Below, piece by piece: positions 46,210 through 64,000 of a stretch of DNA of 64,000 nt. Position 1 is the stretch's first letter. Each line of letters starts with the position of its first letter. The position numbers were made by a program, and so were the translations under genes. The stretch comes from Candidatus Eiseniibacteriota bacterium (GTDB lineage: Bacteria; Eisenbacteria; RBG-16-71-46; CAZAMP01). Below the pieces are notes generated by a model, which was not told where the DNA came from, made no database searches, and was given only the letters and a program-made list of their open reading frames with translations. The stretch is from NCBI GenBank assembly GCA_965224245.1, contig OZ245046.1, forward strand, positions 4,192,001-4,256,000, written 5' to 3'.

Positions 46210-47382
46210 ATGCAGAGCCGAATCATCGAGTGGCGGCACGCGAGCCTCGCGCTCACCGCCGGTGTCCTCGTCGCCTCGACGCTCGTCGGCTGCGCCCGGC
46301 AGGGCGAGACCGCGGCGGACACGTCTCCCGAGGAGCCACCGATCAACGTACGCGTGCTTCACACCTCGCGCGGGGAGCTCGTGGAGTTCCTGGAGATCAC
46401 GGGGCGACTCGACGCCGTCCAGGGCACGGATCTGTCCACCGAGGAGACCGGCGTCGTCGAGAGCGTCCCGCACGACAAGGGCGACGCGGTCGCCGAGGGC
46501 GACGTCCTCGTGGCGCTCGACCGCGATCTCCTGGAGGCGGAGAAGAGGCGCGCCGATGCCGATCGCACGTTGGCCGAGTACAACGAGGATCGGACGCGCA
46601 ACCTGTTCGACGCGAAGTCGGTCAGCGGCCAGGAGATGCTGGTCGCGGCGACCCAGCTCGCCAAGGCGGAGGCCACCGCGGCCGAGGCGGCGCTGCGCTT
46701 CGAACGGGCCGCCATCAAGGCCCCGTACGCGGGCGTCGTGGCCGACCGGTACGTCGAGGTCGGACAGCTCGTCACCGCCGGCACGCCGGTCGCGCGCATC
46801 GTGGACCCGTACACGCTGAAGCTCACGGGCGCGGTCACCGAGACGCAGGTGCGCCAGCTCGAGGTCGGGGCCCCGGTCACGCTGCGGCTGGACGGCGTGG
46901 CGGCGGCGGTCACGGGAGTCGTTCACTGGATCGGCTTCGAGGCCCACCCTCGCAACGGAAAGTTCCCCGTGGAGATCCACGTCGCCAACGAGGATCTGTC
47001 ACTCCGCCCCGGCGTCGTGGGACGCGCCCGCGTCCGGACGGCACGTCATCGGGACGTCGTGGTGATCCCGCGGGATGCCGTGCTCAGCGACGAGGATGGT
47101 CAGCACCTGATGGTGGTTCGCGACGGCGAGAGCGTCGCCACTCCCGTACCGATCACGCTGGGTCCGGATCAGGGCGCGCTCGTGGTGATCGAGTCCGGCC
47201 TCGATGCGGGCGCGCGTGTGATCGTTCGCGGACAGCGTGACGTCTCGACCGGGTCACGCGTGGCGATTCAGGAGGAGACGTCGGAGCCCGACGGCTCCAT
47301 CCCCACCGATCCCGTCGAGGTGCGCGAGCGCGAGCGGGGTCGCCTCGCCGGCGACACCCATCCACAGGGGGCTTCGCGATGA
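46210..47382 (+). CDS. RND efflux periplasmic adaptor (MFP), probable lipoprotein
   Basis: Lipobox-like LVGC; G.V....KGD.V..GDVL; IKAPYAGVV; LRPG; VVIPRDAV. Confidence 0.92.
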   Translation: MQSRIIEWRHASLALTAGVLVASTLVGCARQGETAADTSPEEPPINVRVLHTSRGELVEFLEITGRLDAVQGTDLSTEETGVVESVPHDKGDAVAEGDVLVALDRDLLEAEKRRADADRTLAEYNEDRTRNLFDAKSVSGQEMLVAATQLAKAEATAAEAALRFERAAIKAPYAGVVADRYVEVGQLVTAGTPVARIVDPYTLKLTGAVTETQVRQLEVGAPVTLRLDGVAAAVTGVVHWIGFEAHPRNGKFPVEIHVANEDLSLRPGVVGRARVRTARHRDVVVIPRDAVLSDEDGQHLMVVRDGESVATPVPITLGPDQGALVVIESGLDAGARVIVRGQRDVSTGSRVAIQEETSEPDGSIPTDPVEVRERERGRLAGDTHPQGASR

Positions 47383-50300
47383 GGATCACGAACCTCGCGG
47401 TCTCCCGTTACACGACCGTGTTCGTCCTGATGGCGATCGTGGTCATCCTCGGGATCACGTCGTACGAACGTCTGCCGCGCGAAGCGAACCCGGACGTCAA
47501 GATCCCGTTCGTGATGGTCTACGCGCCCTACCTGGGTACGAGCCCCTACGACATGGAGAACGTCGTCACCCGAAAGCTCGAGGCACAGCTGAAGGCGCTC
47601 CCCGATCTGGTCGAGATGTCGAGCGTCTCGTCCGAGGGGGTCGCCACCGTCGTGCTCGAGTTCACGCCGGACGCGGAGATGATCGACGTTCTGCAGAAGG
47701 TGCGCGACGCCGTCGAGATCGCCAAGCCCGAGCTGCCCCAGGACGTGCGAGAGGATCTCCTCGTCTACGAGATCAGCTCGGACGACTGGCCGATCATGCA
47801 GGTGGTCATGTCCGCCGACTACGACCCGGTCGTGTTGAAGCAGCACGCCGAGGACGTGCAGGAGGAGATCGAGCAGATCAAGGGCGTGCTGTCGGTGGAT
47901 CTCACCGGGGGCGTCGAGCGCGAGGTGCGCATCGACGTGGATCCCGAGCGGCTCCAGTTCTACGGCCTCGGCCTGGTCGACGTCCAGGACGCGATCTCGC
48001 TGGAGAACGTGACCATCCCCGGCGGCGACCTGAAGCTCGGCACGTACGACTACCAGGTCCGGGTCCCCGGCGAGTTCCCCGAGGTCGATGCGATCCGCGG
48101 CGTGGTGCTGAACCCGGGCGCGGACACACCGATCTACGTGGGCGACGTGGCCGAGGTCACCTTCGGGCTGAAGGAGCGCAGCTCCATCTCGCGACTCAAT
48201 GGCACCGAGGCGGTCACCCTGTCGATCAAGAAACGATCCGGCGAGAACATCATCGACATCGCCGACGAGGTGAACCAGCTCATCGCCGAGTATACCGAGA
48301 CGCTCCCGGCGGGCACGTCGATCCAGATCATCGCCGATCAGTCGGTCTACATCCGCGACATGGTGCACGAGCTCGAGAACAACATCCTGAGCGGACTCAT
48401 GCTCGTGGTCGCCGTCCTGTTCCTGTTCCTCGGGCTCACGAACTCGTTCTTCGTCGGCGCGGCGATCCCCCTGTCCATGCTGATCTCGTTCATGGTGCTG
48501 AACGCCATGGGGATCACGCTGAACATGGTCGTGCTGTTCTCGCTGATCCTGGCCCTCGGCATGCTCGTCGACAACGCGATCGTCATCGTCGAGAACGTCT
48601 ACCGTCACCTCGGCAAGGGCAAGGAGCGGTCGCGGGCGGCGCTGGACGGCACCGGCCAGGTCTCGAACGCGGTCGTCGCGTCCACGCTGACCACGATCAT
48701 GGCGTTCGGTCCGCTCATCTTCTGGCCGGGCATCATGGGCGAGTTCATGAAGTACCTCCCGATCACGCTCGTGGTGTGCCTGGCCAGCTCGCTGTTCGTC
48801 GCGCTGGTGATCAACCCCGTCCTCTGCTCGCGGCTCATGCGACGCCCGAAGCCCGGCTCCGGGAGGCCCCGCTTCGGCGATCGAATGCTCGCGTTCGGCC
48901 TGCGAACCTACGAGCCGGTGTTGACGGCGGCGCTGCGACATCGCGTGGTCACCCTGGCGGGCATCCTGGTCGTGCTCGTGGGCACGATCGCGCTGTTCGT
49001 GCGATTCAGCGCCGGGGTCGAGCTGTTCCCCGACGTCGATCCCACGTACGCCTACGTCAAGGTCAACGCGCCGTCGGGGACCCGGATCGAGATCAGTGAC
49101 GCGTACGCACAGACCATCGAGGGGGCCGTCGAGGACGTCCCCGATCTGAAGGCGTTCGTGACGCAGGTGGGCACGGCGACCGACGACACCTTCGGCGGAC
49201 CGAGCGGGGCACCCGCGCACCTGAGTCTGCTGAGCATGGAGTTCCTGAAGAAGGAGGATCGGGAGCAGTCGTCACGGCAGGCGCTGGAGGACCTCCGCGC
49301 GCGACTGCGGAGCTTCACCGGCGCGAAGCTCTACATCGAGAAGCAGGAGGAGGGCCCCCCGGCCGGCAAGCCGGTGAACATCGAGATCTCCGGCCGCGAC
49401 TTCGAGGTGCTCGGCGATCTGGCCACCCAGGTCAAGACGATCATCCAGGACACGCCCGGGCTCGTGGATCTCCAGGACGACTTCGATCGCGGGCGACCGG
49501 AGATTCGCGTCCGGCCCGACCTGGACAAGGCCGGACGGTTCGGCCTGCGAACGATCGACGTCGCGTCCACGCTGCGCACCGCGCTTCACGGAGACGACGT
49601 CTCGAAGTACCGGATCGGCGAGGACGAGTACGACATCGTCGTTCGCCACGCCGGACGGTCCCGGTCCTCGCTGGAGGACATCGAGTCCATCACGGTGTTC
49701 TACGAGGGAGAGACGATCCCGATCACGGCGTTCGCCGACGTGAGCTACGCCACCGGGCTCGGTGCGATCACCCGGATCGACGGCAAGCGCGTGGTGACGG
49801 TGTCCGGCGACGTGGCCGCGGGCTTCAACGGCAACGCGGTGCTGGCGAGCGTCCGCGAACAGCTCGCGGCGTTCGACGTGCCGCCCGGCTATCACCTCAC
49901 GTACACCGGCGAGAACGAGGAGCAGGAGGAGGCCCAGCGCTTCCTGTCCGACGCGTTCGGGATCGCCGTCATGCTGATCTTCCTGGTGCTCGTCACGCAG
50001 TTCACGTCGGTGACCACCCCGTTCGTGATCCTGATGAGCGTCATCCTGTCGATGATCGGCGTGTTGATGGGGCTCCTCGTGACGCGGACGCCGTTCGGGA
50101 TCATCATGACCGGCGTCGGCGTCATCTCGCTGGCCGGCATCGTCGTGAACAACGCGATCGTGCTCCTGGATTACTGCATCCAGCTCCGCCAGCGCGGAAT
50201 GCCCCTGATCGAGGCGGTTCTGGAGGCGGGCAAGGTGAGATTCCGGCCGGTCATCCTGACCGCGATCACGACGATCCTCGGACTCATCCCGCTGACCACC

Positions 50301-50555
50301 GGCATGTCCGTCGACTTCGGGCGCCTCGTCCGCGGTGAGTTCGGGCACGCGTTCATCATCGGCGGCGAGTCGAGCCAGTGGTGGGGGCCGATGGGGGTGG
50401 CCGTGATCTGGGGACTCGCGGTGGCCACGTTCCTGACGCTGGTGGTGGTGCCCGTGATGTACGTGGCGGTCGAGCACCGCAAGGAGCGTCTCGGCGCGTG
50501 GTGGGCGCGCCGCCGCGCGGCGTCTGAGACGGCGGCGACGCCCGACCTCGCCTGA
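47379..50555 (+). CDS. RND efflux permease (AcrB/HAE1 family)
   Basis: LPREANPDV, GMLVDNAIVIVEN, GIVVNNAIVL, RFRPVILTAITT; 1058 aa. Confidence 0.95.
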   Translation: MRITNLAVSRYTTVFVLMAIVVILGITSYERLPREANPDVKIPFVMVYAPYLGTSPYDMENVVTRKLEAQLKALPDLVEMSSVSSEGVATVVLEFTPDAEMIDVLQKVRDAVEIAKPELPQDVREDLLVYEISSDDWPIMQVVMSADYDPVVLKQHAEDVQEEIEQIKGVLSVDLTGGVEREVRIDVDPERLQFYGLGLVDVQDAISLENVTIPGGDLKLGTYDYQVRVPGEFPEVDAIRGVVLNPGADTPIYVGDVAEVTFGLKERSSISRLNGTEAVTLSIKKRSGENIIDIADEVNQLIAEYTETLPAGTSIQIIADQSVYIRDMVHELENNILSGLMLVVAVLFLFLGLTNSFFVGAAIPLSMLISFMVLNAMGITLNMVVLFSLILALGMLVDNAIVIVENVYRHLGKGKERSRAALDGTGQVSNAVVASTLTTIMAFGPLIFWPGIMGEFMKYLPITLVVCLASSLFVALVINPVLCSRLMRRPKPGSGRPRFGDRMLAFGLRTYEPVLTAALRHRVVTLAGILVVLVGTIALFVRFSAGVELFPDVDPTYAYVKVNAPSGTRIEISDAYAQTIEGAVEDVPDLKAFVTQVGTATDDTFGGPSGAPAHLSLLSMEFLKKEDREQSSRQALEDLRARLRSFTGAKLYIEKQEEGPPAGKPVNIEISGRDFEVLGDLATQVKTIIQDTPGLVDLQDDFDRGRPEIRVRPDLDKAGRFGLRTIDVASTLRTALHGDDVSKYRIGEDEYDIVVRHAGRSRSSLEDIESITVFYEGETIPITAFADVSYATGLGAITRIDGKRVVTVSGDVAAGFNGNAVLASVREQLAAFDVPPGYHLTYTGENEEQEEAQRFLSDAFGIAVMLIFLVLVTQFTSVTTPFVILMSVILSMIGVLMGLLVTRTPFGIIMTGVGVISLAGIVVNNAIVLLDYCIQLRQRGMPLIEAVLEAGKVRFRPVILTAITTILGLIPLTTGMSVDFGRLVRGEFGHAFIIGGESSQWWGPMGVAVIWGLAVATFLTLVVVPVMYVAVEHRKERLGAWWARRRAASETAATPDLA

Positions 50556-51649: not shown

Positions 51650-53140
51650 TCACCGCAGGATCTGAATCCGGAGCGCGCTCGCGGCACCGGTGACGTCGAC
51701 ATAGTAGACGCCCGGCGTCGTCGGTGCACCATGGGTCGTCACGCCGGTCCACACGAACGGGAAGCGGTCGACACGCTGCCGGAAGACCAGGCGCCCGGCC
51801 ACGTCGTAGATCGACACGAGTCGCCGGCCGGAGCCCGGGACGTCGAGCCGGATTGCGCCCCGGGTCGGATTTGGCCACGCCGACGGCACGGGGTGAGACC
51901 CGGTGACCGGCGCGATGCCGACGACCTGATTGAGCGCCCCGAGCGCGTTCACGCGGCCCGATCCGAGCTTGTCGACGTAGGCGCCGTTTCCGGGCAGATG
52001 GTAGATGGCATCGGCCCCGTCCACGACGGCGCTCTGGACCAGAGACGCGGTCCACGTCGGGTGGAGAGACTGGACCAGCGCCGCGATGCCCGACACGAAC
52101 GGGGTGGCGAACGAGCACCCGGCGCCGAGCGCCCACTGCCCACCGGGGTACGAGCTCCGGACCCCGGTGCCCGGCGCGGACACGTCGACCTCCTCGTGCC
52201 AGTCGGCGAAGTCGGCCTTCACGTCCACGGAATCGAGAGCGGTGACCATGATCGTGTCGCCGTCGGATCCCGGGTAGTACGGGGGGATCTCGGTGCTGGC
52301 GTTGCCGGCCGCGGCCACCATCAGCGCCCCCCGCATGTCTCCGTACTGGATCTCCCGCTCGATCGCGTCGACCTCGATCGGCACGCCGAAGCTCATGTTG
52401 AGGATGTCGGCGCCGGACTCGATCGCGTAGCGGATGCCTTCGATGACCCGGAACGCGTCGGCACGCCCCTCGTCGTCGAGAATGCGAACGGGCAGGATCG
52501 AGGCGTCCGGCGCGACCAGCGCGAGAATCCCGGCGACCATCGTGCCGTGGCCGTAGCCGTCGTCGACCTCGCCGTCGCCGTCGTCGTCCAGGTCGTTGAA
52601 CACCTCCCACGGCTCGGCATCGGCATCGACGAAGTCCCAGCCGGACACCAGGTGCCCCACGAGCGCCTCGTGTGTGGGATCCACTCCCGTGTCGAGCACC
52701 GCGATCGTCACCCCGGCGCCGGTCGAGATCGCGTGCGCGGCGTCGAGCGCGATCCGATCGGTCAGGAGCTGATCCTCGTAGTCGACGTATCCGCCACCGA
52801 CGATGATCGCAATCATCTGGCGCACGCCCTCGGGCGTGTCCTCGATGTAGTTCGGCTCGGCGTTCGCGACGTCGGGGTCGCCCGTCATCATCTCGGCAAA
52901 GTTCTCGAGCTCGTCGACACCGTCGATGAACACGAGGTACAGCCCGGCGGTCGCAAAGGAGTCGACCGTCTCGGTGCCCCAGCGCTGGTTCACGTCGTCG
53001 ATCGACGCGCCCTGCTCGAGCCAGAGGACGATCTCGCCGGACTCCCACGTCCCGGTCGCGGAGACACTCCCCGCCACCAGCGTCGCGCTCAGTCCGATCG
53101 CGAGAATCGTGAGAAGCGGGTGCGTGTGTCGGTCAATCAC
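51650..53140 (-). CDS. Secreted S8 (subtilisin-like) peptidase with CTD-like tail
   Basis: Triad VLDTG / GHGTMVAG / GCSFATP; oxyanion AAAGN; DDDGDGEVDD Ca-binding loop; tail WPNPTRG...YDVAGRLV...GVYYV. Confidence 0.9.
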   Translation of the reverse strand: MIDRHTHPLLTILAIGLSATLVAGSVSATGTWESGEIVLWLEQGASIDDVNQRWGTETVDSFATAGLYLVFIDGVDELENFAEMMTGDPDVANAEPNYIEDTPEGVRQMIAIIVGGGYVDYEDQLLTDRIALDAAHAISTGAGVTIAVLDTGVDPTHEALVGHLVSGWDFVDADAEPWEVFNDLDDDGDGEVDDGYGHGTMVAGILALVAPDASILPVRILDDEGRADAFRVIEGIRYAIESGADILNMSFGVPIEVDAIEREIQYGDMRGALMVAAAGNASTEIPPYYPGSDGDTIMVTALDSVDVKADFADWHEEVDVSAPGTGVRSSYPGGQWALGAGCSFATPFVSGIAALVQSLHPTWTASLVQSAVVDGADAIYHLPGNGAYVDKLGSGRVNALGALNQVVGIAPVTGSHPVPSAWPNPTRGAIRLDVPGSGRRLVSIYDVAGRLVFRQRVDRFPFVWTGVTTHGAPTTPGVYYVDVTGAASALRIQILR

Positions 53141-53186
53141 GGTCGTCTCCTGGATCTCGGCCCTCGGGAATGATACTGCAGGTCGT

Positions 53187-54971
53187 TCATCGGCGTACCC
53201 ACCGCACCCCGGTGTGGTGCTCCCCCGCGTGCACGTCCACGTAGACGGGCGATCCCACCGCGAAACGGTCGAGGTCGGCCCCGTCGAGTCGCCAGGCCCA
53301 GCCGTCGCCCGAGCGTCGCGGGCGCCCCAGCCGCATGACGAGCCGCCCCGTGACGTCGTACAGCGCGGCGCTGGGCGCGCCCTCGCCGGAAGCGGTCGTC
53401 GCGAGTCGGATGATCAGATGATCGCGAGCGGGATTCGGACTCACCGAAACAGCCAGCCGGGGGCCGGTTGCCGGCACGGACTCGGAGGTCGGAATCGGTC
53501 CCAGCATCTCCAGCCGTCCGTCCGTTCGGCGCGCCATCAGACGATAGCGGTCGCCCGATCGGTGTTCGGACGCGGTGAAGCGAAACGTGGCGCCGCTCGC
53601 GGACATGTCCACGGTGAGCCCGTCGATGGACGAGCCGGAGTGGAACCACCCTCCGGCCAGCTCGGTCTCGGTCAGGCCGCGCACGCGATGGAGCGAGAAC
53701 GCGGCGAACCGGGCGAGGTCGTCGACGGTCCACGTGAGCACCGCGCTCGTGCCGAACCCCTGCGCGTCGAACCCGGACACACCGAGGATCGGGGTGTTGC
53801 GGACGAGATCCACGTCGAACGTGAGCGGACCGTCGACGTGGAGGTCCTCGACCACGCCCTCGGCCAGTCCGCGAAAGGCCGGCGCACGGACGTGGAGGTC
53901 GTAGTCGCCCGGCGGTGCGACCAGGAGAAAGTCGCCGGCGGCGTTCGAGCGCCCCCCGGCCAGCGGGACCTCGGCGCCGCCGGGCTCGCGAAGCTCGAAC
54001 CCGACGTCGGCGACGCCCTCGCCGAGGTCGTCGCGGACCGTGCCGCTCATCGGCCACCCGGTCGACAGCACCACGTCCGGAGCCGATACGTCTCCCGAGA
54101 CGGACACGGTCACCTCGCCCGCGGCGAGCCCCAGGTGCTCGCGGGGCCGGGCCACCAGACGGTAGGTCCCGTTCGGCAGCGCGATCGCGTAGCCCCCGCC
54201 CGCGTCCGTTCGATCTGAGCCCAGCGGAAGCTCGACGCCGTCGACATCGAACGCGTCGAGGTTGGCGCGACCGACTCCGACGCCGCCCGCGGTCACCCGT
54301 CCGGTGACCAGCGACCCGGTCTCGAGCTCGATGACGCCGGTCGACGTGGCGCTCGCTCCGACCGAGACGTCGACCCGTCTCGCGAGGAGCCGTCCGGCGG
54401 ACGGCGGCTCCACCGTGACCCGGAGCTCGACGTTCGACGGGACGACGACGCTGAATGCGCCGCTCGCGTCGGTCTCGTCGTCGGGGCTGTGGATCTTCTC
54501 GTCGGTGTCCGTGCGCCGGAGGCTCAGGTCGGCCCCGTCCACCGGCGTGCTCGTCGGACCCACGACGGTTCCGGTCAGCCGGACACCCACCTCCATCTCG
54601 ACGCGGAAGTCGGCGATGAAGCCCACGAGCGGCCAGTTGACGAACTCGCGCGAGACGAGCGGCTCGCCCGAGACGGCCTCGAACCTGATCCGGTAGCGCC
54701 CGTCGGGCACGATGAAGTCGTAGCTGCCGTCGGTGTCGGTGTCGTCGTCGACGAGATCCAGCGACACGCCATCCGCGTCGATCACGTCGATGTCGATCCC
54801 CGGGATGCCGACCCCGTTGGTCGTGGTGACGCGACCGCTGACGTTGGCGGCGGCGGCGATCGTGGCCGATGTGACGGTGATCGTCGCGAACAGGGCTGCC
54901 CAGCGCACACCGCGCGCGGCCCGGGTGAGGGCCGCGCGGGTGCGGGGGAGGGTGTGCGTCGAGTTCTTCAT
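53187..54971 (-). CDS. Secreted protein with 4 carboxypeptidase-regulatory-like (CnaB/transthyretin-fold) repeats and degenerate CTD tail
   Basis: Signal peptide; repeats SG.V....G..V..D.D....D.TD..G.Y....P.G.Y; tail SPNPARDH...YDVTGRLV. Confidence 0.78.
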   Translation of the reverse strand: MKNSTHTLPRTRAALTRAARGVRWAALFATITVTSATIAAAANVSGRVTTTNGVGIPGIDIDVIDADGVSLDLVDDDTDTDGSYDFIVPDGRYRIRFEAVSGEPLVSREFVNWPLVGFIADFRVEMEVGVRLTGTVVGPTSTPVDGADLSLRRTDTDEKIHSPDDETDASGAFSVVVPSNVELRVTVEPPSAGRLLARRVDVSVGASATSTGVIELETGSLVTGRVTAGGVGVGRANLDAFDVDGVELPLGSDRTDAGGGYAIALPNGTYRLVARPREHLGLAAGEVTVSVSGDVSAPDVVLSTGWPMSGTVRDDLGEGVADVGFELREPGGAEVPLAGGRSNAAGDFLLVAPPGDYDLHVRAPAFRGLAEGVVEDLHVDGPLTFDVDLVRNTPILGVSGFDAQGFGTSAVLTWTVDDLARFAAFSLHRVRGLTETELAGGWFHSGSSIDGLTVDMSASGATFRFTASEHRSGDRYRLMARRTDGRLEMLGPIPTSESVPATGPRLAVSVSPNPARDHLIIRLATTASGEGAPSAALYDVTGRLVMRLGRPRRSGDGWAWRLDGADLDRFAVGSPVYVDVHAGEHHTGVRWVRR

Positions 54972-54988
54972 GCGGGCTCGATCCGTTC

Positions 54989-56689
54989 TCAGTTCACCTT
55001 GACCGCCCGGACGGACGCGCCGGAGTCACGATCCCTGACGAGGTACACGCCGGGGCTCACCCGGACGCCGCGCACGTCCAGACCGTCCCAGGTCAGGATC
55101 GATCCGGCGCCGGCCGGGAGCGATCGGACGAGACGTCCGCGGGCGTCGAAGACGTCGAGCGTACCGGCGGAGACGCCGTCCATCGTCACCACGAGGGCGC
55201 GGTGGAACGGATTCGGCGCGGCCGACAGCACACCGCCGGCCAGCCCCGGAACGTCACCGACGGCGACCGCCCGATCGAGCGCGAAGTTCAGCGTCGTGTC
55301 GCCGGTGATCGAGACCCCCAGCTCGGTGGCCGAGTCGAACCCGGAGCCCGCCGGTGGATTCGCCGAGACGTCGTAGACGCCGCCGGGGACGCGCACGCGA
55401 TAGAAGCCGGACACTGACGTATCGTCGTCCGGCGTCGGGTAGTGCTTGCCGGCCACCGCGTCGACGAAATCCATGTCCACGTCCGCGAGGGGGCTTCCGT
55501 CACCCGTGACGGTGCCCGACACCACGAACCCCGCCGAGAGCGTGATGTCCCCGAGCGAACGCGACGTCGAGACCACCTCGTCCCACCGGACCGCGGCGGC
55601 CAGCTCGGCTCCGGCCGGCGGGTTGAGGTTGAAGTCGTAGATCCCGCTGGGGATCACGACCGAGAACGTCCCCGACGCGGTCGTGTTGTCGTTGGGCGTG
55701 TATCGCTCGAGCCCGGTGGCGGTGTCGATCACGTCGACGTCGGCGTCCACGAGCGGGAGACCACCGGGGCCCAGGAGTCGACCGGTGACGGTGAGCGCCG
55801 CCCTGAGCACGGTCTCGCCGATGTCGGTGGAGCCGCCGATCGCGACGTCCGGGACGCGCTCGGGTGCGAACGGGCTTGCGGGGGCCGGCTTGAAACGGAA
55901 CTCGTACACGCCGGCCGGGAGGAACACCGACCAGTCCCCGAAGAAATCGCTGTCGTCGCCGGAGAGAAAGCGCTCGACGCCGTCCTCGTCGAGCACGTCC
56001 ACGTCGACGTTGAACACCCCCGCGCCGACCTCGTCCACGACGCGCCCGGTCACCGTGAGGCCGGGGCGCAGGACGAAGGTCTCGAACCCGGGAACGCTCG
56101 TGTCGTAGCTCTCGCGCCACTCCGGGGCGCGAGCGCCGGTGTCGTCGGTCACGATCACGTCGTGGATGCCGACGGGCACCATCACCGCCAGATCCCCGAG
56201 CTCGTCCGGGTCGTCGTCGCGCAGGAAGACGTCGTCGCCGGTGCTGGTGTCGATCAGACGCAAGGTACATGCCACATACGGAGCGCCGCCCTCGTCCTGG
56301 ACGTGAATGGTCAAGAGCGTCCCATCGGGCAGGATCGTCGGCGGGAGCGTGGTGTCCGTCTCCAGATCCACGCTCTCCAGGAACACCGGGGCGTACGAGC
56401 CCCCGGGGGGCCCGAGAACGGTGATGTCGTACCGCCCGGCCGGGATGATCACCTGGAAATAGCCGGTCGCGTCGGTGTGGTCGCCCGTGGGGTCCACCTC
56501 GGAGTCCGTATCCTGGTTAAACCAGTCCAGATCGGCATTTACGATGGGGGCCCCGCCCGTGGTCCGGACGAACCCGTCCACGATCACCGCGTTCGATTCC
56601 GCCGCGAGAGCCACCGCCAGGATGGCGCCGGCAATCCATGCCCGGCGACCCGCGGTCGGGGGGCGCCGCCGATCGGTCCGTTCCGTCAT
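54989..56689 (-). CDS. Secreted protein with 5 carboxypeptidase-regulatory-like repeats and FlgD-Ig/CTD tail
   Basis: AGAAAGAGGA RBS; signal peptide; five ~88-aa repeats; tail APNPFHR...FDARGRLVR...WDGLDVRGVRVSPGVYLVR. Confidence 0.8.
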   Translation of the reverse strand: MTERTDRRRPPTAGRRAWIAGAILAVALAAESNAVIVDGFVRTTGGAPIVNADLDWFNQDTDSEVDPTGDHTDATGYFQVIIPAGRYDITVLGPPGGSYAPVFLESVDLETDTTLPPTILPDGTLLTIHVQDEGGAPYVACTLRLIDTSTGDDVFLRDDDPDELGDLAVMVPVGIHDVIVTDDTGARAPEWRESYDTSVPGFETFVLRPGLTVTGRVVDEVGAGVFNVDVDVLDEDGVERFLSGDDSDFFGDWSVFLPAGVYEFRFKPAPASPFAPERVPDVAIGGSTDIGETVLRAALTVTGRLLGPGGLPLVDADVDVIDTATGLERYTPNDNTTASGTFSVVIPSGIYDFNLNPPAGAELAAAVRWDEVVSTSRSLGDITLSAGFVVSGTVTGDGSPLADVDMDFVDAVAGKHYPTPDDDTSVSGFYRVRVPGGVYDVSANPPAGSGFDSATELGVSITGDTTLNFALDRAVAVGDVPGLAGGVLSAAPNPFHRALVVTMDGVSAGTLDVFDARGRLVRSLPAGAGSILTWDGLDVRGVRVSPGVYLVRDRDSGASVRAVKVN

Positions 56690-56875
56690 TCCTCTTTCTC
56701 CTACAGCCGGGTTTCAGCCACGTGTGTCGCGTAGGTAGGGGTGCTCGGCGGGGGGCGCTTGATACGGCGCCGGGCCAGAATCTCGCGAGGAAATCACGGT
56801 AGGGGCGTATCAACCCCCCCACGGATCCAACCCGTTCTCCGCACGATGGGGCTCGGTGACGCAAGGGAGAGTCCG

Positions 56876-58030
56876 TTGGGTCGGCGGTACGTGATCTACT
56901 CACACGATGGCTTCGGGATGGGCAACATCCGGCGCAACCACGCGGTGGCGAAGCGGATCGTCGAGCGAGACGCCGACGCCAGCGTGCTGTGCCTGACCAG
57001 CTCCCGCTATCTCCATTTCCTGCCGCGACATCCCCGGATCGAGCTCGTGAAGCTCCCCGAGGTGCTGCGGGTGGGCCGCGGCGAGTACCGCTCTCGGACC
57101 GAGGGAGTGGCCATCCGTCCCCTGCTGGCCGCCCGGCGCGAGATCATCCGGGGAGCGATCAAGGGGTTCGATCCCGACGTGCTCCTGGTGGACAAGACGC
57201 CCGACGGCATCGCCGGCGAGCTCCGACCGCTCCTCGCGGGGCTGGATCGGGATCGCACGCGCGTCGCCCTGATTCTGCGTGACGTCCTGGACGAGCCGCG
57301 GTGGACCCGCGAGTTCTGGGCGCGCACGGGCCAGTACGACTGTCTCACCGAGTCCTACGACGCGGTCACCATTCTCGGAGATGACGCGCTCTTCGACACC
57401 GCCACCGCGTGCGGGCTCGATCGCGTGCCCGGCGTCGACGTCGCATACTGTGGGTACCTCGTCCGCGAGGCCCCCCACGACGACCCGGAAGCCCCCGAGC
57501 CCCTCGGCGACCGGTTTCTGATCTCGGTGGGTGGCGGCGAGGACGGCCTGGAGGTGATGCAAGCCTCCATCCAGGCCCTCTCCTCCATGGCGGCCGGCGA
57601 GCGTCCTGCGATCGACGTCGTGTTCGGGCCGTTCTTTCCGGCCGACGACCGCGATCGGTTGACGGCGACGTTCCAGCGACTGACCGATGCGCGGTGCACG
57701 AGCTTCGAGCGTCATCTCCGCGAGCGCATTCGCACGAGCCGCGGTGTGATCAGCATGGCCGGCTACAACACGGTGTGCGAGATCCTCGAATCGAGCGCCC
57801 CGGCCCTCGTCGTTCCCCGGCGCCACCCCAGCCGCGAGCAGGTCATCCGGGCCTCACGGATGACCGAGGTCGGCATCGTCGACTCGCCGGAGACCGCCGA
57901 GGCCACGCCGGAGCGCATTCGCGACTTCTTCACGTCGCCGAGACCACAGGACCGGAGCCGCTTTCGCCGCGGCGGCCACGACGGGATCGCCGGCCGAGCC
58001 GAGTCCCTCGCGACGCTGGCGCGGTGCTGA
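56876..58030 (+). CDS. GT-B glycosyltransferase (COG4671/GT28-C-like); start TTG 56876 or ATG 56846
   Basis: YSHDGFGMGNIRR, PDVLLVDK.P.G..GEL, LRDVLDEP, VGGGEDG, SMAGYNTVCEIL, VPR...EQ.IRA. Confidence 0.85.
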   Translation: MGRRYVIYSHDGFGMGNIRRNHAVAKRIVERDADASVLCLTSSRYLHFLPRHPRIELVKLPEVLRVGRGEYRSRTEGVAIRPLLAARREIIRGAIKGFDPDVLLVDKTPDGIAGELRPLLAGLDRDRTRVALILRDVLDEPRWTREFWARTGQYDCLTESYDAVTILGDDALFDTATACGLDRVPGVDVAYCGYLVREAPHDDPEAPEPLGDRFLISVGGGEDGLEVMQASIQALSSMAAGERPAIDVVFGPFFPADDRDRLTATFQRLTDARCTSFERHLRERIRTSRGVISMAGYNTVCEILESSAPALVVPRRHPSREQVIRASRMTEVGIVDSPETAEATPERIRDFFTSPRPQDRSRFRRGGHDGIAGRAESLATLARC

Positions 58031-58033
58031 GCG

Positions 58034-60964
58034 ATGCGCGCGATCGACGGCGAGCCGACCGTGAGCGCCGATCTCCGATCCGGCGTCACCGCGCTGATGT
58101 CGGCGGTTCCCTCCGGTGCCCGGATTCTCCGGTTGGACGTCTCCTCGCGTGATCGTCTCAGCGCGCTATACGCCGACGAGGGCGGTGAGCTGGCCGGCGC
58201 GGCGCTCGCACGCGACTCCGGCCGCGTTCGCCTGTTCACGCCGGAAAACGATCCGAGGCTCTTTCCAGCTCCCGGCACGCTGGCGGACATCCTCGCCCGG
58301 GCCTGCGAGGCGGCCGCCGCCCCGGCGGACCAACCGATCGCGCGCGCGGTGGCCTACCGGCCCGGCAAGCGGCTCGTTCTCTCGCTCTCGACCGGCGACG
58401 ACCTCCTCGCGTTCGTGAAGATCCGTCGCGGCCCCGTGCTCACCGACCGCCTGGAGGCGGCATCGCGCAGCGGACTCTGGCCCACGCTTCTCGCGTCGTT
58501 CGGACACGACGCCCTGGCGGTCGAGGTCCGGCGGCCGGTGCCCGGCCGAGCGCTGACCGCCGACGTCACGCGTGGCGACCGCCGAGAACCGGTCACCGGT
58601 CCGCTGGCCGCGTCGCTGGCCGGGTTCGCCACGACCTCCCTCACCGGCCTCTCGATCCCCGAGAGGACCGGCGATCACGCCGCCGCCGAGACCCAACGCA
58701 TGCTGGACAAGGCGGTCCGTCTCGGCATGCTCGCCGACGGCGCCCTCGCCGAGGCGGTCGCGGATGCCGGTGCCCAGCTGACGACGGACGGTTCCGCCGA
58801 GCTGGTCGCCTCACACGGAGATCTTCACGACGGCCAGATCCACCTCGACTCCGCGGCCGTCTCGTGGATCGACGCCGACAGCATCGTGCGAGCGCCCGTC
58901 GAGGCCGACCTGGCGAACCTCGGAGCTCACATTCACCTGCGACGCGTCCAGTCGACGTGGTCGACGCCGTCTCCGTCGGGTCGGGCGGCCGGCCCCGTGA
59001 CCGCCGATCTGGCCTGGGAGCACGCGCTCCGCGACAGCATGCTGCGGTCGCTTCCGCCGCGGCTCGCCGCGTCCTTCTCGACCCGGCGATGGCACGCCTG
59101 GCGACGGCTGACGTTCGCCCGTCTCGCGGCCGTGTACGCGATGCGCCCGGTGTGGCGACCGATCACCGGTGCGCTGAGTGCGCTCGCGTCGGCGCCGCTC
59201 GCGCTCGTTCTCGTCCTCCTGGCGGCGCTCGGAGCGGCGGCCCCCGACGCGCCCGCCGCGTCGCCTCAGCCCCTGGCGCCTCACCATCTCCGGGACGGCG
59301 TCTGGGTCGAGGTGCAGGGCGAGTACCGCCCGGGCAAACGGTTCAAGGTCGAGGAGCTCGATCTGAAGCTCCCGCGCGGCGACGACCGGGTCGAGATCAG
59401 CGGAATCGTGACGGCGATCGACCCCGCGAGCGGCCGGGTGACCGTCATCGGCGTGCCGATCGAGACCGATGCGGAGACCACGCTGGACGGACTGGGCGGC
59501 CTCGAGACCCTCGCGATCGGCACGCTGATCAAGACCTCCGCGCTCCGCCGCTCGGGAGACGGCTTCCGCGCCGGGCACCTCGCCTCGCGCGACCCCGACG
59601 ACGGATGCGAGATCGAGGGCTACCTGACCGACCTGGAGGGCCGCGGCGGTCGCTGGACGTTCGAGGTCAACGGCATCCGCATGCGCCTGTCGTCGGACCC
59701 CGAGATCACGATCGAGCCCGAGGCGCTTCCGTACCTGGCCGCGGTGACCGAGAACGACCGGTCGCGACGCCGCTCCGACGACGACTGGCAGCCGGTCGGC
59801 CAGACGTTTCTCCATCCGTCGCTCTCGATCGGGGGGCGGATCTCCGGTCGTCTGACGTCGGAGAACGAACGCGACCTGAACGTCGACGTCGAGGACGAGC
59901 TCGTCGAGTCGAACCTCCATGCCCGCACGCACGTGCGATGGACGCCCAACCCCTGGTTCAGCGCCTATGCCGAGGTTCGCTGGACGGGTAGTCGCGGCCT
60001 GGACAACCCGTCGTCGATCCCCGACGTGGACCGGTCCGAGTACCAGTCGGGGCCCACGAACGTCCTGGTCCGTACGCGACGCTGGCCGCTCTCGGCCCGG
60101 CTGGGACGGATCGACGTGGAGGACGAGCGCGAGTGGTTCCACGACCAGAACCTCGACGGCATCCGTGTGCGCTGGACCGGCCGCGTGCTCGGCCTGGACG
60201 TCGGCCGCTATCGCACCGACATCACGCCGACCGACCGGAGCGACGACGAGCTCTACTCGATCGCCTCCATCGAGCTGTCGATGACCGACGTCGTACGTCC
60301 GAGCATCCACGTGATCACGCGACGCGATCGGCGCGCACCGGGAGACGAGCGCACGTGGACCGGGATCAGCGCTCCTCTGAGTCTCGGCGATCACGTCGAG
60401 GCGTGGGGGCACGGCGCGGTGGCGCGAGGGGATTACCGCGGCAAGAGCGTTCGCTCGTGGGCATCGGACGGCACGTTGCTGCTCCGGGTCAAACGCCCGC
60501 TTCGGGTGTCCATCTACGGCGGCTACGCGTTCGCCACCGGCGATGCGGACCGGGGCGACGGGATCGATCGCGAGTACCGTGACACGGATCTCGCCGACTA
60601 CTCCGACGCGATGGACGGGCTCAAGAGCTTCCGGTACTACGGCGAGTTCTCAGAGCCCGAGCTGTCGAACGTGCGCATCTGGACCGCCGGGGCCGGTACC
60701 TACCTGTTCTCGTGGCTCTCGCTGGACGCGGTGCTTCACGGGTACCGGCAAGACGAGTTCCGGGACCGATTCCGATCCGAGATCCCGATCCGCCCCACGG
60801 GCGACGACAAGGAGCTCGGCCGCGAGGTCAACGTCATCGCCGGCATCCGTGACGTCGGTCCGATCGACGTCAAGATGGTCTGGAGCTCGTTCGATCCAGG
60901 TCGGGCGTTCGAGACCCGCGACCGTTCGTCGGCCTTCGAGGTCCAGATCGAATGGCGGCGCTGA
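58034..60964 (+). CDS. APH/choline-kinase-like phosphotransferase fused via an internal signal peptide to DUF5666-like repeats and an alginate-export (AlgE-like) beta-barrel
   Basis: Kinase AYRPGKR, FVKI, SHGDLHDGQI, WIDAD, EADLANL; in-frame ATG 59141 MRPVWRP...LALVLVLLAALGAAA; EISGIVTAID/EIEGYLTDL repeats; barrel NLDGIR, GGYAFATGD, FRYYGE..EPELSN, ELGREVN. Confidence 0.78.
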   Translation: MRAIDGEPTVSADLRSGVTALMSAVPSGARILRLDVSSRDRLSALYADEGGELAGAALARDSGRVRLFTPENDPRLFPAPGTLADILARACEAAAAPADQPIARAVAYRPGKRLVLSLSTGDDLLAFVKIRRGPVLTDRLEAASRSGLWPTLLASFGHDALAVEVRRPVPGRALTADVTRGDRREPVTGPLAASLAGFATTSLTGLSIPERTGDHAAAETQRMLDKAVRLGMLADGALAEAVADAGAQLTTDGSAELVASHGDLHDGQIHLDSAAVSWIDADSIVRAPVEADLANLGAHIHLRRVQSTWSTPSPSGRAAGPVTADLAWEHALRDSMLRSLPPRLAASFSTRRWHAWRRLTFARLAAVYAMRPVWRPITGALSALASAPLALVLVLLAALGAAAPDAPAASPQPLAPHHLRDGVWVEVQGEYRPGKRFKVEELDLKLPRGDDRVEISGIVTAIDPASGRVTVIGVPIETDAETTLDGLGGLETLAIGTLIKTSALRRSGDGFRAGHLASRDPDDGCEIEGYLTDLEGRGGRWTFEVNGIRMRLSSDPEITIEPEALPYLAAVTENDRSRRRSDDDWQPVGQTFLHPSLSIGGRISGRLTSENERDLNVDVEDELVESNLHARTHVRWTPNPWFSAYAEVRWTGSRGLDNPSSIPDVDRSEYQSGPTNVLVRTRRWPLSARLGRIDVEDEREWFHDQNLDGIRVRWTGRVLGLDVGRYRTDITPTDRSDDELYSIASIELSMTDVVRPSIHVITRRDRRAPGDERTWTGISAPLSLGDHVEAWGHGAVARGDYRGKSVRSWASDGTLLLRVKRPLRVSIYGGYAFATGDADRGDGIDREYRDTDLADYSDAMDGLKSFRYYGEFSEPELSNVRIWTAGAGTYLFSWLSLDAVLHGYRQDEFRDRFRSEIPIRPTGDDKELGREVNVIAGIRDVGPIDVKMVWSSFDPGRAFETRDRSSAFEVQIEWRR

Positions 60965-62601
60965 TGCGATCAACGACGACGAATGCCGATGGACGCGTGC
61001 TCCACCTCGTTCACAGCGGCGCCGACCTGAGCGAGGCGATCGCGCCGGAGACCGGGCTCACGGCGGCGGCTCCCGGCGCCCAGTGGCTGCTCGGTCCCGT
61101 GCTGCCCGACGCCGCGTTCGATCCACCGGATTGGGTCGAGTGGATCCGGGTTCCGGAGCTGGCCACCGAGGGCGCCGACTGGACGACGACCGTGTCGCGC
61201 CTGGTCGAGGCGCTTCGCCCCGCGCGCATCGTCGTCCACCGAGACGTGCACCGGGCGTCGCCGACGCTCGCCGCGACGCTTCATCAGATCTACGGAGACC
61301 GAATGACGATCATGCCGATGGAGGACCTCGCGCGGCCGCTTCGCGTGGGATACGTGCTGAAGAAGTTCCCGCGTTACTCCGAGACCTTCATCCTGCGCGA
61401 GGTCCTTGCCCTGGAGCGGCTCGGGGTGGACGTTCACGTCCTGTCGCTGCACCTGCCCCGGGACGGCCGCTTTCACGGATCGCTCTCCGAGCTCCGCCGG
61501 TCGGTTCACTATCTGGAGGACCGCAGCGCACCGAAGGCGCTCGGCGCCGTCCTGCCGCTTCTCCCCGAAGATCCCGGCGGACGCCGGCGCGTGACCGACC
61601 TGTTCTGGGAGACGCTCGATCGCGGGGATCCTCGCCTCCTCGGGTACCTCGCACGCGGCATCGAGATCGCCGCGCTCGTCCGGGAACGGGGGATCACGCA
61701 CCTGCACGCGCACTTCGCCACGTCGGCCTGCGAGGTCGCTCGCGTCGCGGCCGCGATCGCCGGTGTCACGTACAGCTTCACCGCACACGCGAAGGACATC
61801 TACGCCGACGACGTGGATCGCCGGGGCCTCGATCTGAAGCTCCGCGACGCCGCGTTCGCCGTGACCGTGTGCGATGCCAACGTCGACTATCTCCGGGCGA
61901 TGCACGCGTCCGCCAACGGCACCGTGCGCCGGCTCTTCAACGGAATACGCCTCGATCGGGAGACCGACGCGCGTCCCGCCGGCGAGCACCGCGACGGATC
62001 GGCGCCCGCCGTCGACGTGCTCGCGGTGGGACGCTTCGTGGAGAAGAAGGGCTTCTCTATGCTGCTCGACTCGCTGGCCGAGGTGCGCCGTCGCGGCGTT
62101 CCGTTCTCGTGCCGGATCCTCGGCGACGGCGAGCTGTTCGAGGACGTGCGGGCCCACCGGGATCGCCTCGGGCTCGGAGACGTCGTGGACCTGCCGGGCT
62201 CCGCGTCGTCCGAGCAGATCCGGGCCCAGATGGCGACGGCCGGCTTTCTCGTGTGTCCGTCGATCGTGGCCGGGAACGGCGATCAGGACGCGCTGCCCAC
62301 GGTGCTCCTGGAGGCGATGGCCGCTGGGCTCGCGACGATCGGCACGCGCGTCGGCGGCATCGGCGAGATCCTGAACGGCGGGCGAGCAGGCCGGCTGATC
62401 GATCCCGACCCCGCGGCGCTGACCGACGCCATCTGCGAGCTCCTGACCCGACCGGAGCGGCGCGCGCACTTCGCCTCGGAGGGACGCGCACACGCCGCGG
62501 AGAACTTCGACGTCGATCGAAACGTGGCACGCCTCGCGGAGTGGTTCCGCGGGGCCGGAACGACGGTCCCGTCGGCCGTCCAGGAGGCTCGGTCCTCATG
62601 A
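60964..62601 (+). CDS. GT4 glycosyltransferase with extra N-terminal domain
   Basis: YVLKKFPRYSETFILRE, HLHAHFAT, FTAHAKDIY, VGRFVEKKG, DALPTVLLEAMA; TGATG coupling. Confidence 0.9.
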   Translation: MRSTTTNADGRVLHLVHSGADLSEAIAPETGLTAAAPGAQWLLGPVLPDAAFDPPDWVEWIRVPELATEGADWTTTVSRLVEALRPARIVVHRDVHRASPTLAATLHQIYGDRMTIMPMEDLARPLRVGYVLKKFPRYSETFILREVLALERLGVDVHVLSLHLPRDGRFHGSLSELRRSVHYLEDRSAPKALGAVLPLLPEDPGGRRRVTDLFWETLDRGDPRLLGYLARGIEIAALVRERGITHLHAHFATSACEVARVAAAIAGVTYSFTAHAKDIYADDVDRRGLDLKLRDAAFAVTVCDANVDYLRAMHASANGTVRRLFNGIRLDRETDARPAGEHRDGSAPAVDVLAVGRFVEKKGFSMLLDSLAEVRRRGVPFSCRILGDGELFEDVRAHRDRLGLGDVVDLPGSASSEQIRAQMATAGFLVCPSIVAGNGDQDALPTVLLEAMAAGLATIGTRVGGIGEILNGGRAGRLIDPDPAALTDAICELLTRPERRAHFASEGRAHAAENFDVDRNVARLAEWFRGAGTTVPSAVQEARSS

Positions 62602-63830
62602 CGAAGCCCCACGTCGCCTACGTCGTCGCGGATCCCGGCATCGACTGGCGCAGCGCGAAGGGCGCCGCGGTCCACGTCCGCGAGATGGTCCGCGCCATGT
62701 GCGACATCGGATGTCGCGTCTCGGTCGTCACCACGCGAGGCGTCGCGTCCATCGGCGAGGACGAGCCCGAGTTCGCCCGTCTCGAAGCGTGTCGCGCCGT
62801 CGACCGCCACTTCGGGGCGGCTCCCCGTGAGGAACGCCCCGGCGCGTTGCGTGAGATCCGCACGCTGGCCAAGATGCCGGTCGTCGCCGACGCCGTTCTG
62901 GCGCTCGACGCCGCGGATCGCATCGACGTGGTCTACGAACGCTACTCGCTGTGGAGCGACGTCGGGGCCCGGGTCTCCGGCGAGCTCGGCGTGCCGCTGG
63001 TGGTGGAGATGAACGCGCCCCTCATCGACGAGCAGACGTCCTATCGATCGCTGGCCCTGACCGACGTCGCCGAGCACGTGCTCGGTCGCACGATGTCGAG
63101 CGCCGAGCGGATCGTCGTGGTCAGCCGGGCGCTCGAGCACTACCTCGCGGCGCGGGGCATCGATCGCGAGCGCGTTCGGATCCTGCCGAACACCGCGGAG
63201 CGAGAGCGATTCTTCCGATCCCCTCACCGCGCGCCGGCACCGGGCGAGCCGTTCACGGTCGGCTTCCTGGGAAGCCTCAAGCCCTGGCACGGCGTCGAGC
63301 AGTTCCTGGACGTGTTCGCCACCGTGCATGCGGCACACCCGAACTGCCGGCTGGAGATCGTGGGGGACAGCCGCCATCGCGCGTCGCTCGAAGAGTGGGT
63401 GCGCGCGAACGAGCTCGGGGGCGCGGTCCGCTTCCTCGGACACGTCGAGCACGAACGCGTTCCCGAGATCCTGGAACGGTGGGATCTGGCGGTCGCGCCC
63501 TACCCCGATCTCCCCGGATTCTACTTCTCGCCCCTGAAGCTGGCCGAGGCGCTGGCCGCCGGACGTCCGGTGATGGCCGCCGGCATCGGCGACATTCCCG
63601 AGATGCTCGGGAACGGGGACCACGGCGTGCTCGTTCCCCCGAGCGACTGGCAGCGCTGGACGCAAGCGCTCACGGCTCTCGTGACCGATCCGAGCAAGCT
63701 GTCTCCGCTCGCCGACGCGGCAGAACGACATTCGCGCGACTGGAGCTGGCGAACTCACGCGGCCGCGAGCCTCGAGGGCCTCGTCATGAACGGCGCGCCG
63801 CCACGCGAGCTGTCTCGTGCCGCGGATTGA
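62598..63830 (+). CDS. GT4 glycosyltransferase
   Basis: ATG 62598 (ATGA overlap); DPGI...KGAAVHVRE, YERYSLW, EMNAPLIDEQ, GSLKPWHG, FYFSPLKL.E.LAAG. Confidence 0.9.
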   Translation: MTKPHVAYVVADPGIDWRSAKGAAVHVREMVRAMCDIGCRVSVVTTRGVASIGEDEPEFARLEACRAVDRHFGAAPREERPGALREIRTLAKMPVVADAVLALDAADRIDVVYERYSLWSDVGARVSGELGVPLVVEMNAPLIDEQTSYRSLALTDVAEHVLGRTMSSAERIVVVSRALEHYLAARGIDRERVRILPNTAERERFFRSPHRAPAPGEPFTVGFLGSLKPWHGVEQFLDVFATVHAAHPNCRLEIVGDSRHRASLEEWVRANELGGAVRFLGHVEHERVPEILERWDLAVAPYPDLPGFYFSPLKLAEALAAGRPVMAAGIGDIPEMLGNGDHGVLVPPSDWQRWTQALTALVTDPSKLSPLADAAERHSRDWSWRTHAAASLEGLVMNGAPPRELSRAAD

Positions 63831-64000
63831 CGTCCGGACCGCCGCGCTGTGGCGGCGGGAGCAGCTCTCGCGGGCGTGGCACGTCATCCGCACGTTCGCG
63901 CCGTACGCGAAGCGGCACCGCGCCCTGGCCCTGGGGGCGTTCGCCAGCATCGTCGCCGGCGCCGGAATCCGCGTACTTCAGCCCCTGCCGCTGAAGTACC
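63817..64000 (+). CDS. 3'-truncated ABC exporter (fused permease/ATPase), N-terminus only
   Basis: GTG 63817: ...FAPYAKRHRALALGAFASIVAGAGIRVLQPLPLKY resembles the first TM and PWPLK motif of ABC exporters; only about 60 codons visible. Confidence 0.6.
   Translation, partial: MPRIDVRTAALWRREQLSRAWHVIRTFAPYAKRHRALALGAFASIVAGAGIRVLQPLPLKY

Follow-up and report, generated by a model that had tools for sequence, protein, structure and literature searches.

How can a kinase that needs ATP and a barrel that belongs in the outer membrane be made as one polypeptide? This question is raised by a gene at positions 58034..60964 (+ strand) of the window, by which we mean the whole 64,000-nucleotide (nt) stretch of contig OZ245046.1 from a Candidatus Eiseniibacteriota bacterium that was analyzed here. 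Without an intervening stop codon, the gene joins a kinase domain, an internal signal-peptide-like segment, DUF5666-type domains, and an AlgE-like outer-membrane barrel. Sequence comparisons with split and fused relatives argue that the arrangement is rare but evolutionarily conserved, a genuine and maintained gene fusion, and that it arose from a translationally coupled kinase/barrel gene pair. As to the product, we see an even chance that the precursor would be cut at the internal signal peptide by signal peptidase I, which would yield a membrane-tethered kinase and a free barrel.

A single reading frame joins the kinase to the barrel

The open reading frame (ORF) at 58034..60964 comprises 976 codons, has 0 internal stops, and encodes a product of 976 amino acids. 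The genome has approximately 70% G+C, and long frames can stay open by chance; the composition of the codon positions was therefore checked. The G+C content at the third codon position (GC3) of the fusion frame is 0.78–0.95 in each 120-nt interval between 58050 and 60959. The other two frames have lower values, except for ties or near-ties in three intervals [58140-58259, 0.78/0.78; 58500-58619, 0.85/0.90; 59220-59339, 0.88/0.90]. Over the junction (59040-59339), the GC3 of the fusion frame is 0.88, and a change of frame is not indicated there.

For one sample, three runs were assembled separately, and the resulting contigs cover 58700-59700 with neither differences nor gaps; the same study also includes a second sample, of which a 151-nt contig is identical over 59060-59210. 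Short matches of 18–33 nt, joints, and loose ends in the read contigs represent unrelated contigs and were disregarded. The first sample is probably the source of the genome assembly itself and is hence not independent support; the agreement excludes a one-off assembly slip and nothing beyond that. The original prediction, made from the letters of the window, described a kinase fused to a barrel without a stop codon and proposed a check of the reads over 59100-59280. The single frame, its coding-level GC3 throughout, and the contig agreement bear this out, and the contigs contain neither a stop nor an indel in that interval.

The kinase domain and the barrel

The first 386 residues (58034..59191, + strand) form a kinase domain with the APH fold, resembling glucosamine kinase and maltokinase. 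In a Pfam scan of the first 369 residues no match was obtained, PF01636 being absent even at E<=10, and the methylthioribose kinase model TIGR01767 matches the kinase part weakly (E 0.035). Two fused relatives discussed below, P0002 and P0003, pass the PF01636 cut-off of 23.2 bits (30.4 and 34.1 bits, respectively). Moreover, a profile of 71 sequences (window residues 1-369 and 70 relatives) compared with solved structures finds APH-family enzymes at E 1.3e-8 to 1e-5, among them aminoglycoside, capreomycin, and amicoumacin kinases, maltokinase, and glucosamine kinase. The AlphaFold2 (AF2) model of residues 1-369 has a bilobal kinase fold [predicted local distance difference test (pLDDT) 89.3; predicted template modeling score (pTM) 0.87]. 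With this model, Foldseek ranks glucosamine kinase 6HWL as the best match (E 3.6e-11), followed by APH(3') and maltokinase, over a range of E 4e-11 to 7e-8.

Both catalytic motifs are intact: the catalytic loop HGDLHDGQ at residues 261-268 (58814-58837, + strand) and IDAD at residues 279-282 (58868-58879, + strand), which includes the downstream metal-binding Asp. In the 71-sequence alignment H261 is present in 71/71, D263 in 70/71, and D280 in 71/71 sequences, while Q268 is found in 63/71 (N in 8) and D282 in 62/71 (E in 9). K129, invariant in 4/4 fused proteins, is the probable beta-3 Lys; MAFFT places the family Lys three columns off. Because the catalytic residues are conserved over the 71 sequences, the kinase is probably active and hence must face ATP. 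The APH-like N-terminal domain with HGDLHDGQ and DAD that had been read from the sequence is thus supported by the 71-sequence profile, structural match, and residue conservation. In the full-length AF2 model (pLDDT 85.7), residues 372-386 form a confident helix (pLDDT 81–91) that is modeled within the kinase domain. A periplasmic kinase was also considered and dropped, residues 1-40 being without a hydrophobic stretch.

The C-terminal side begins with beta-rich, predicted periplasmic domains of DUF5666 type at residues 424-560 (59303..59713, + strand), where Pfam DUF5666 matches residues 457-509 (30.7 bits; cut-off 27) and the AF2 model has strands. They are followed by an 18-strand AlgE-like outer-membrane barrel at residues 590-975 (59801..60958, + strand). 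Pfam Alginate_exp covers residues 597-967 with 57.6 bits (cut-off 25.2) and model positions 3-389 of 395, and a manual count in the full-length AF2 model gives 18 strands between residues 594 and 975. AlgE chains occupy Foldseek ranks 1–16 with target template modeling (TM) scores of 0.68–0.77 [3RBH, E 3.6e-18, target TM 0.73]. Taken together, Pfam, the modeled strands, and the structural ranking agree with the DUF5666 and AlgE-like assignment made earlier, and the proposed structure prediction of each part returns an APH-type kinase fold and an 18-strand barrel. Approximately 190 residues separate the hydrophobic core of the signal-like segment from the first barrel strand: residues 401-423 are a disordered linker, and two beta domains and a pair of short helices make up the rest.

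With respect to the barrel terminus, the proteins of the kinase-fused clade end in ...EWRR (60947-60964 in the window), which is unusual as a C-terminal signal of an outer-membrane barrel. Most split barrels have a terminal aromatic residue instead (...RFRF, ...RYQF, and ...DVSF).

Split and fused relatives

A split arrangement, with a kinase gene directly upstream of a separate DUF5666-Alginate_exp gene, was found at 5/5 loci examined. Three of these belong to the class of the window bacterium (G014, G017, and G039) and two to Planctomycetota / Planctomycetaceae (L006 and L012). All five carry two APH-type kinases, joined to each other in L006 and G039, and then a barrel gene with its own N-terminal signal peptide. 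The stop of the kinase and the start of the barrel overlap as ATGA at 4/5 loci, and the junction reads TAG-C-GTG in L012. Because the split junction is an ATGA overlap or a near-abutting stop and start, a fusion would be obtainable by a small frame change. The signal peptide of the split G017 barrel (L030:1507-3240) contains a lipobox-like LLVAAC, which makes this protein a possible lipoprotein, unlike the other split forms, which have AxA-type sites.

A genome scan returned 13 loci, three of them with kinase and barrel (L006, L007, and L012, of which L006 and L012 are split), and a metagenome scan returned seven loci with kinase-part matches only. The kinase was matched in 4/41 relative genomes (G000 included). 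Among 206 genomes of the class, six (G000 included) match the protein, and the kinase part is covered in G000 only.

Fused relatives came from an exhaustive HMMER search of residues 1-369 against 1.84 billion representatives, which gave 102 matches at E<=0.001, five of which were read (P0002, P0003, P0004, P0007, and P0009). In three of these, P0002 (992 residues), P0003 (970 residues), and P0007 (1549 residues), kinase and barrel follow each other in one protein. P0002 and P0003 match the window protein in architecture. P0007, of metagenomic origin, is a still larger fusion of a GT28-like domain, a first kinase, a second kinase, a signal-like segment, and the barrel, with approximately 960 residues of cytoplasmic type ahead of the signal-like segment. 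All three derive from other assemblies and show 38–44% full-length identity to the window protein; the protein P0002 recurs from a second source as P0107. Two word-index protein searches with the barrel yielded a handful of relatives (5 and 6 proteins), none with a new type of fusion.

A maximum-likelihood tree was built from 14 barrel parts; in it, a 100/100 clade with a long stem unites the four kinase-fused proteins and the fragment P0103. The simplest reading of the tree would be one old fusion that has been kept through divergence to approximately 40% identity, and divergence to this extent with the fusion kept therefore argues for selection on the joined frame. That all homologs are split, with 59141 as the sole barrel start, would have undone the original prediction, and the three fused protein clusters speak against it; the split state itself is real at the five loci described above.

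The junction and its signal-like segment

The C-terminal motif of the kinase domain is RLAAVYAMRPVW (residues 363-374), and an in-frame ATG (59141..59143, + strand) forms codon 370 inside its YAMRPVW portion, as had been noted. This ATG, flanked by in-frame GTG codons at 59132 and 59150, is a possible but unsupported internal start. By eye, no GGAGG- or GAGG-like stretch lies within 40 nt upstream of 59132, 59141, or 59150, in keeping with the earlier remark that 59141 lacks an obvious ribosome-binding site; for comparison, the ATG of the downstream gene at 60952 has GAGG 14 nt upstream. Met370 is part of Y-x-x-R-P-x-W, a kinase-family consensus that is also present in the stand-alone kinases P0004 and P0009, and the residue at its position in the fused relatives is M (P0002), C (P0003), or A (P0007). 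Since this is a kinase-motif position, occupied by Cys or Ala in two fused relatives, the alignment argues that the Met at 59141 is not a conserved or designed barrel start.

The signal-like segment begins further downstream. Its hydrophobic core, LALVLVLLAALGAAA, spans residues 389-403 (59198..59242, + strand). The top 12-residue hydropathy interval is 389-400 (mean 3.02), and AF2 models a separate low-confidence helix at 389-400 followed by disorder to approximately residue 412. The c-region PDAPA (59243..59257, + strand) leads to a predicted signal peptidase I site after A408 (APA/AS, residues 406-408/409, the slash marking the cut), as judged from a comparison of positions -3 and -1 with the split homologs. 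Hence, a signal peptide ahead of the barrel is still favored by the short hydrophobic region and the small -3/-1 residues, but not at the position first suggested: it had been placed at 59141 in the last kinase helix, whereas helix 372-386 belongs to the kinase and the signal-like core is 389-403.

In contrast to an ordinary N-terminal Sec signal, the segment is internal, 388 residues into the ORF with no upstream stop. The features compared here were judged in all proteins by inspection and hydropathy, and the anchor-pattern script skipped the rows of G019 and G017 in the signal-segment comparison. The uncharged run in the four fused proteins is 29 (window, residues 376-404), 18, 14, and 18 residues, and four split forms have runs of 15–25 residues in their N-terminal signal peptides. 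The residues at the -3/-1 sites are APA/AS, ARA/AS, ADA/SV, and AAA/NG in the four fused proteins and ASA/AF, SSA/QS, and SAA/QS in three split forms. From the site to the conserved LRxGxWVEV motif there are 4–10 residues in the four fused proteins and 5–7 in the three split forms. According to PMC2120157, hydrophobic regions are considerably longer in signal-anchor sequences than in cleaved signal peptides. Judged by this length criterion, the segments of 3/4 fused proteins resemble cleaved signals, and that of the window protein is ambiguous.

Parallel fusions to outer-membrane proteins

Relative G019 carries a 948-codon ORF (L027:436-3282) in which a Methyltransf_11 domain (residues 126-220) is followed by a signal-like segment (residues ~352-374) and DUF5666/Alginate_exp. 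At its junction, GC3 supports one frame, and stops interrupt both alternative frames. No ATG, GTG, or TTG is present in the 23 codons ahead of the hydrophobic core, the only in-frame codons of start type upstream being a TTG at residue 309 and a GTG at residue 328. This methyltransferase-barrel protein is an independent fusion at the position that the kinase takes in other genomes.

Within the window, a TetR-family regulator and a TolC-like OEP share a single stop-free frame (44075-46204, + strand) with GC3 of 0.84–0.96 throughout. Their linker is an R-rich stretch and then a signal-like segment (...RRHAIACLVGLGSALSIALAEVASA/AEV), with only approximately 30 residues between the hydrophobic segment and the OEP fold; genes for an RND pump follow (46210-50555). 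TetR and OEP form one stop-free frame in six relatives as well (G001, G061, G062, G069, G059, and G057), and in G056 and G058 both match in open frames of equal length. In the search for this fusion 29/206 genomes match at E<=1e-20, and in several others TetR and OEP are matched separately. The hydrophobic segment of G059 and that of G057 have no ATG, GTG, or TTG within 43 codons. These frames show that cytoplasmic proteins have repeatedly become fused in frame to signal-bearing outer-membrane proteins in this group and that such fusions persist, although cleavage is not proven thereby.

Fate of the fused product

How might a cell deal with such a chain? Translation from the ATG at 58034 would produce a 976-residue precursor, of which the first ~386 residues would act as a cytoplasmic, ATP-dependent kinase of sugar type. 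The ancestral barrel signal peptide, now internal (residues ~389-408), would engage Sec with its N-terminal side remaining in the cytoplasm, and the C-terminal ~570 residues would be translocated over the inner membrane. Signal peptidase I would then cut after APA (A408), freeing the DUF5666-barrel part to become an AlgE-like export pore in the outer membrane. The kinase would be left tail-anchored at the inner membrane by the leftover signal peptide, near the glycosyltransferases and the ABC exporter that the operon encodes; alternatively, it might later be freed by an intramembrane protease that degrades signal peptides. The signal peptidase I (S26) and site-2 protease (M50) families are present in the genome, both being near-universal in bacteria. 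Abstracts on E. coli RseP describe the clearance of leftover signal peptides by this protease.

We infer cleavage, anchoring, and contact with the ABC exporter from the features of the junction and the operon. The retention of signal-peptide features, with uncharged runs of 14–29 residues and small -3/-1 residues, in all four fused proteins, as in the split forms, is consistent with cleavage. These features also fit the earlier idea of a cleaved product with an inner-membrane kinase; the exporter gene belongs to the same operon (63817 on), and contact with it is a matter of inference. Several points weigh against this scheme. The predicted site was derived by inspection and hydropathy, the 29-residue uncharged run of the window protein (376-404) is the longest of the fused set and could be a permanent anchor, and no basic residue immediately precedes its core, the nearest being R371 and R375. 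The lipobox-like LVAAC of G017 suggests that an N-terminal membrane tether on the barrel may be tolerated. Moreover, P0002, P0003, and P0007 were compared as proteins, and hidden internal starts in their genes are possible. Finally, the cytochrome b/c1 precursor of Bradyrhizobium is, to our knowledge, the sole natural bacterial precedent.

If the segment were never cut, one chain would run from the cytoplasmic kinase through the periplasm, with its DUF5666 domains, to its own outer-membrane barrel. This outcome appears unlikely to us. The 29-residue run of the window protein favors it, the ~190 residues between the core and the first strand might span the periplasm, and tethering of a barrel at its N terminus is maybe tolerated, as judged from G017. 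However, the other three fused proteins have short cores (14–18 uncharged residues), and small -3/-1 residues, which a pure anchor does not need, are kept in 4/4 fused proteins. The spacer of ~30 residues in the TetR-TolC-like fusion is also estimated to be too short for the periplasm, and cleavage there seems required. Were the uncleaved chain nevertheless real, synthesis and export at the inner membrane would be physically coupled to the outer-membrane pore. More doubtful still is the view that initiation at the ATG 59141 (or the GTG 59132/59150) is the main source of the barrel and that the read-through chain is a tolerated by-product of stop-loss. Three in-frame start-type codons do lie 16–22 codons ahead of the hydrophobic core, and P0003 has a Met five residues before its core (MDLVR-AALVV...), at the expected start of the ancestral barrel. 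Yet no Shine-Dalgarno-like sequence precedes the three codons, Met370 is a residue of the kinase motif replaced by Cys or Ala in two fused relatives, Met and Val are both absent from P0007 between its kinase motif and hydrophobic core, and nearby start codons are lacking in the fusions of G019, G059, and G057. Internal initiation is not exclusive of cleavage; it would add to the fate of the fusion and cannot replace the fused product. A ribosome starting at 58034 would still produce the joined chain, there being no stop before 60962, so the dual initiation suggested earlier cannot take the place of this chain.

That the frame is an artefact or a decaying gene, in which an assembly indel or a recent stop-loss has joined two genes into a non-functional product, we regard as very improbable. 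A one-base change in an ATGA overlap would suffice to create the fusion, and the confirming runs probably come from the source sample of the genome assembly. The same fusion is found, however, in three other clusters from other assemblies at 38–44% identity, with frame, catalytic residues, and barrel intact. GC3 is at coding level along the whole frame, and the assemblies of three runs and one contig of a second sample agree.

Cleavage by signal peptidase I can also be considered together with the parallel fusions. We tentatively propose, at somewhat less than even likelihood, that signal peptides of outer-membrane proteins are reused in this lineage as self-resolving linkers, at which signal peptidase I splits a cytoplasmic enzyme or regulator (kinase, methyltransferase, or TetR repressor) from the outer-membrane protein that follows it in the chain. 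If so, a 1:1 output would be fixed, and the cytoplasmic partner would either stay at the export site by its tail anchor or be open to release through intramembrane proteolysis. This would represent a natural bacterial polyprotein strategy for envelope systems.

Relation to known systems

Outer-membrane barrels normally carry a plain N-terminal signal peptide. A cytoplasmic enzyme of 386 to 960 residues ahead of the signal peptide thus raises questions about how the chain is targeted, whether natural internal signal peptidase I sites exist, and whether the leftover signal serves as an anchor. In addition, recurrence with a methyltransferase and TetR suggests an unusual tolerance for upstream fusions among genes whose products are exported. 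In the abstracts and excerpts retrieved from the literature, a fusion of this kind, with an internal signal peptide between a cytoplasmic enzyme and an outer-membrane barrel, is not described. The architecture appears to be undescribed, although its parts belong to known families (the APH fold and AlgE-type porins).

The closest relative of the barrel is AlgE of Pseudomonas aeruginosa (PF13372), which has the same 18-strand barrel, a near-full match to the Pfam model, and the top structural match. The window barrel is 15–18% identical to AlgE and differs from it in bearing N-terminal DUF5666 domains and a cytoplasmic kinase in the chain. The surroundings also differ from the alginate system: the neighbors are GT28/GT4 glycosyltransferases, APH kinases, and an ABC exporter, with no Alg8/Alg44-type synthase or AlgK among the neighbors scanned. 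For the kinase, the best structural matches are an actinobacterial glucosamine kinase (6HWJ/6HWK/6HWL) and mycobacterial maltokinase (4U94, 5JY7), which align over ~400–420 columns with the N-terminal cap included, but at 14–21% identity and TM ~0.5. The catalytic loop of the window kinase, HGDLHxxQ, has Q where aminoglycoside kinases have N. We know of no glucosamine kinase, maltokinase, or APH enzyme that is joined to an exported protein.

In E. coli O9a, WbdD terminates the O-antigen chain; it combines a kinase and a methyltransferase and works with GT4 transferases and an ABC transporter. The window locus is similar in having a kinase-fold enzyme within an ABC-exporter glycan cluster, and the methyltransferase that takes the place of the kinase before the barrel in G019 echoes the two activities of WbdD. 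Nevertheless, the similarity between the kinases is very weak (E 0.006–0.012 over ~80 profile positions), the ABC exporter of the window is of ABC_membrane type, and WbdD is not fused to an outer-membrane protein. A long coiled coil, as in the WbdD-type ruler, is absent from the full-length AF2 model.

The FbcH cytochrome b/c1 precursor of Bradyrhizobium japonicum is a polyprotein that is split at an internal signal peptide. It resembles the present case in that one ORF with an internal signal sequence gives rise to a pair of mature proteins, one on each side of the inner membrane. Both halves of FbcH, however, end up in one inner-membrane complex, whereas here the outer membrane would be the destination of the C-terminal half, and an enzyme of soluble type forms the N-terminal half. 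Bitopic proteins of the PknB/ToxR type have the topology expected of an uncleaved window chain; we know of none with an integral outer-membrane barrel as its external part.

The operon and its surroundings

The fusion gene is part of an operon with the order GT28-like gene, fusion gene, GT4, GT4, ABC exporter, and the APH kinase K1. The GT28-like glycosyltransferase (56741..58030, + strand) was assigned by Pfam Glyco_tran_28_C (24.3 bits; cut-off 22), and its stop lies 3 nt before the ATG of the fusion gene. The same domain occurs inside the fused polypeptide P0007. Downstream, the ATG of a GT4 glycosyltransferase gene (60952..62601, + strand; Pfam) overlaps the last codons of the fusion gene, and the domain scan of the following genes identifies a second GT4 glycosyltransferase (62598..63830, + strand) and an ABC exporter with ABC_membrane and ABC_tran domains (63817..64000, + strand), which continues to ~65613 beyond the window end. 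BLASTP places the fused kinase closest to the barrel-adjacent kinase K2 of the split loci, while the kinase after the ABC exporter matches K1. Among the Pfam matches of five flanking, 11 upstream, and 11 downstream genes, which cover this neighborhood, there was no Alg8/Alg44-type synthase and no AlgK-type TPR lipoprotein.

A glycan or glycolipid is probably built, phosphorylated, and exported by the products of this operon. The genetic linkage of an APH-fold kinase of sugar type to an AlgE-like pore and an ABC exporter suggests that a phosphorylated glycan or glycolipid passes through a pathway not yet described. The neighboring gene families recur at the related loci G014 and G039, and partly at G019, G017, and the Planctomycetota loci. 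Upstream on the opposite strand (51650-56689, - strand) lie genes for two CarboxypepD_reg/FlgD_ig secreted proteins and an S8 subtilase, and past the operon there is a convergent CHAT-TPR gene (L005:4922-7726, - strand). The recurrence suggests that the flanking S8, CarboxypepD_reg-FlgD_ig, and CHAT-TPR genes are part of a larger conserved module.

A second GT28-APH kinase fusion, 636 residues long, is encoded in the same genome ~7.2–9.1 kb past the window end (L005:9171-11081). It adjoins a gene for an ECF-type (extracytoplasmic function) sigma factor and one for a protein with no Pfam match.

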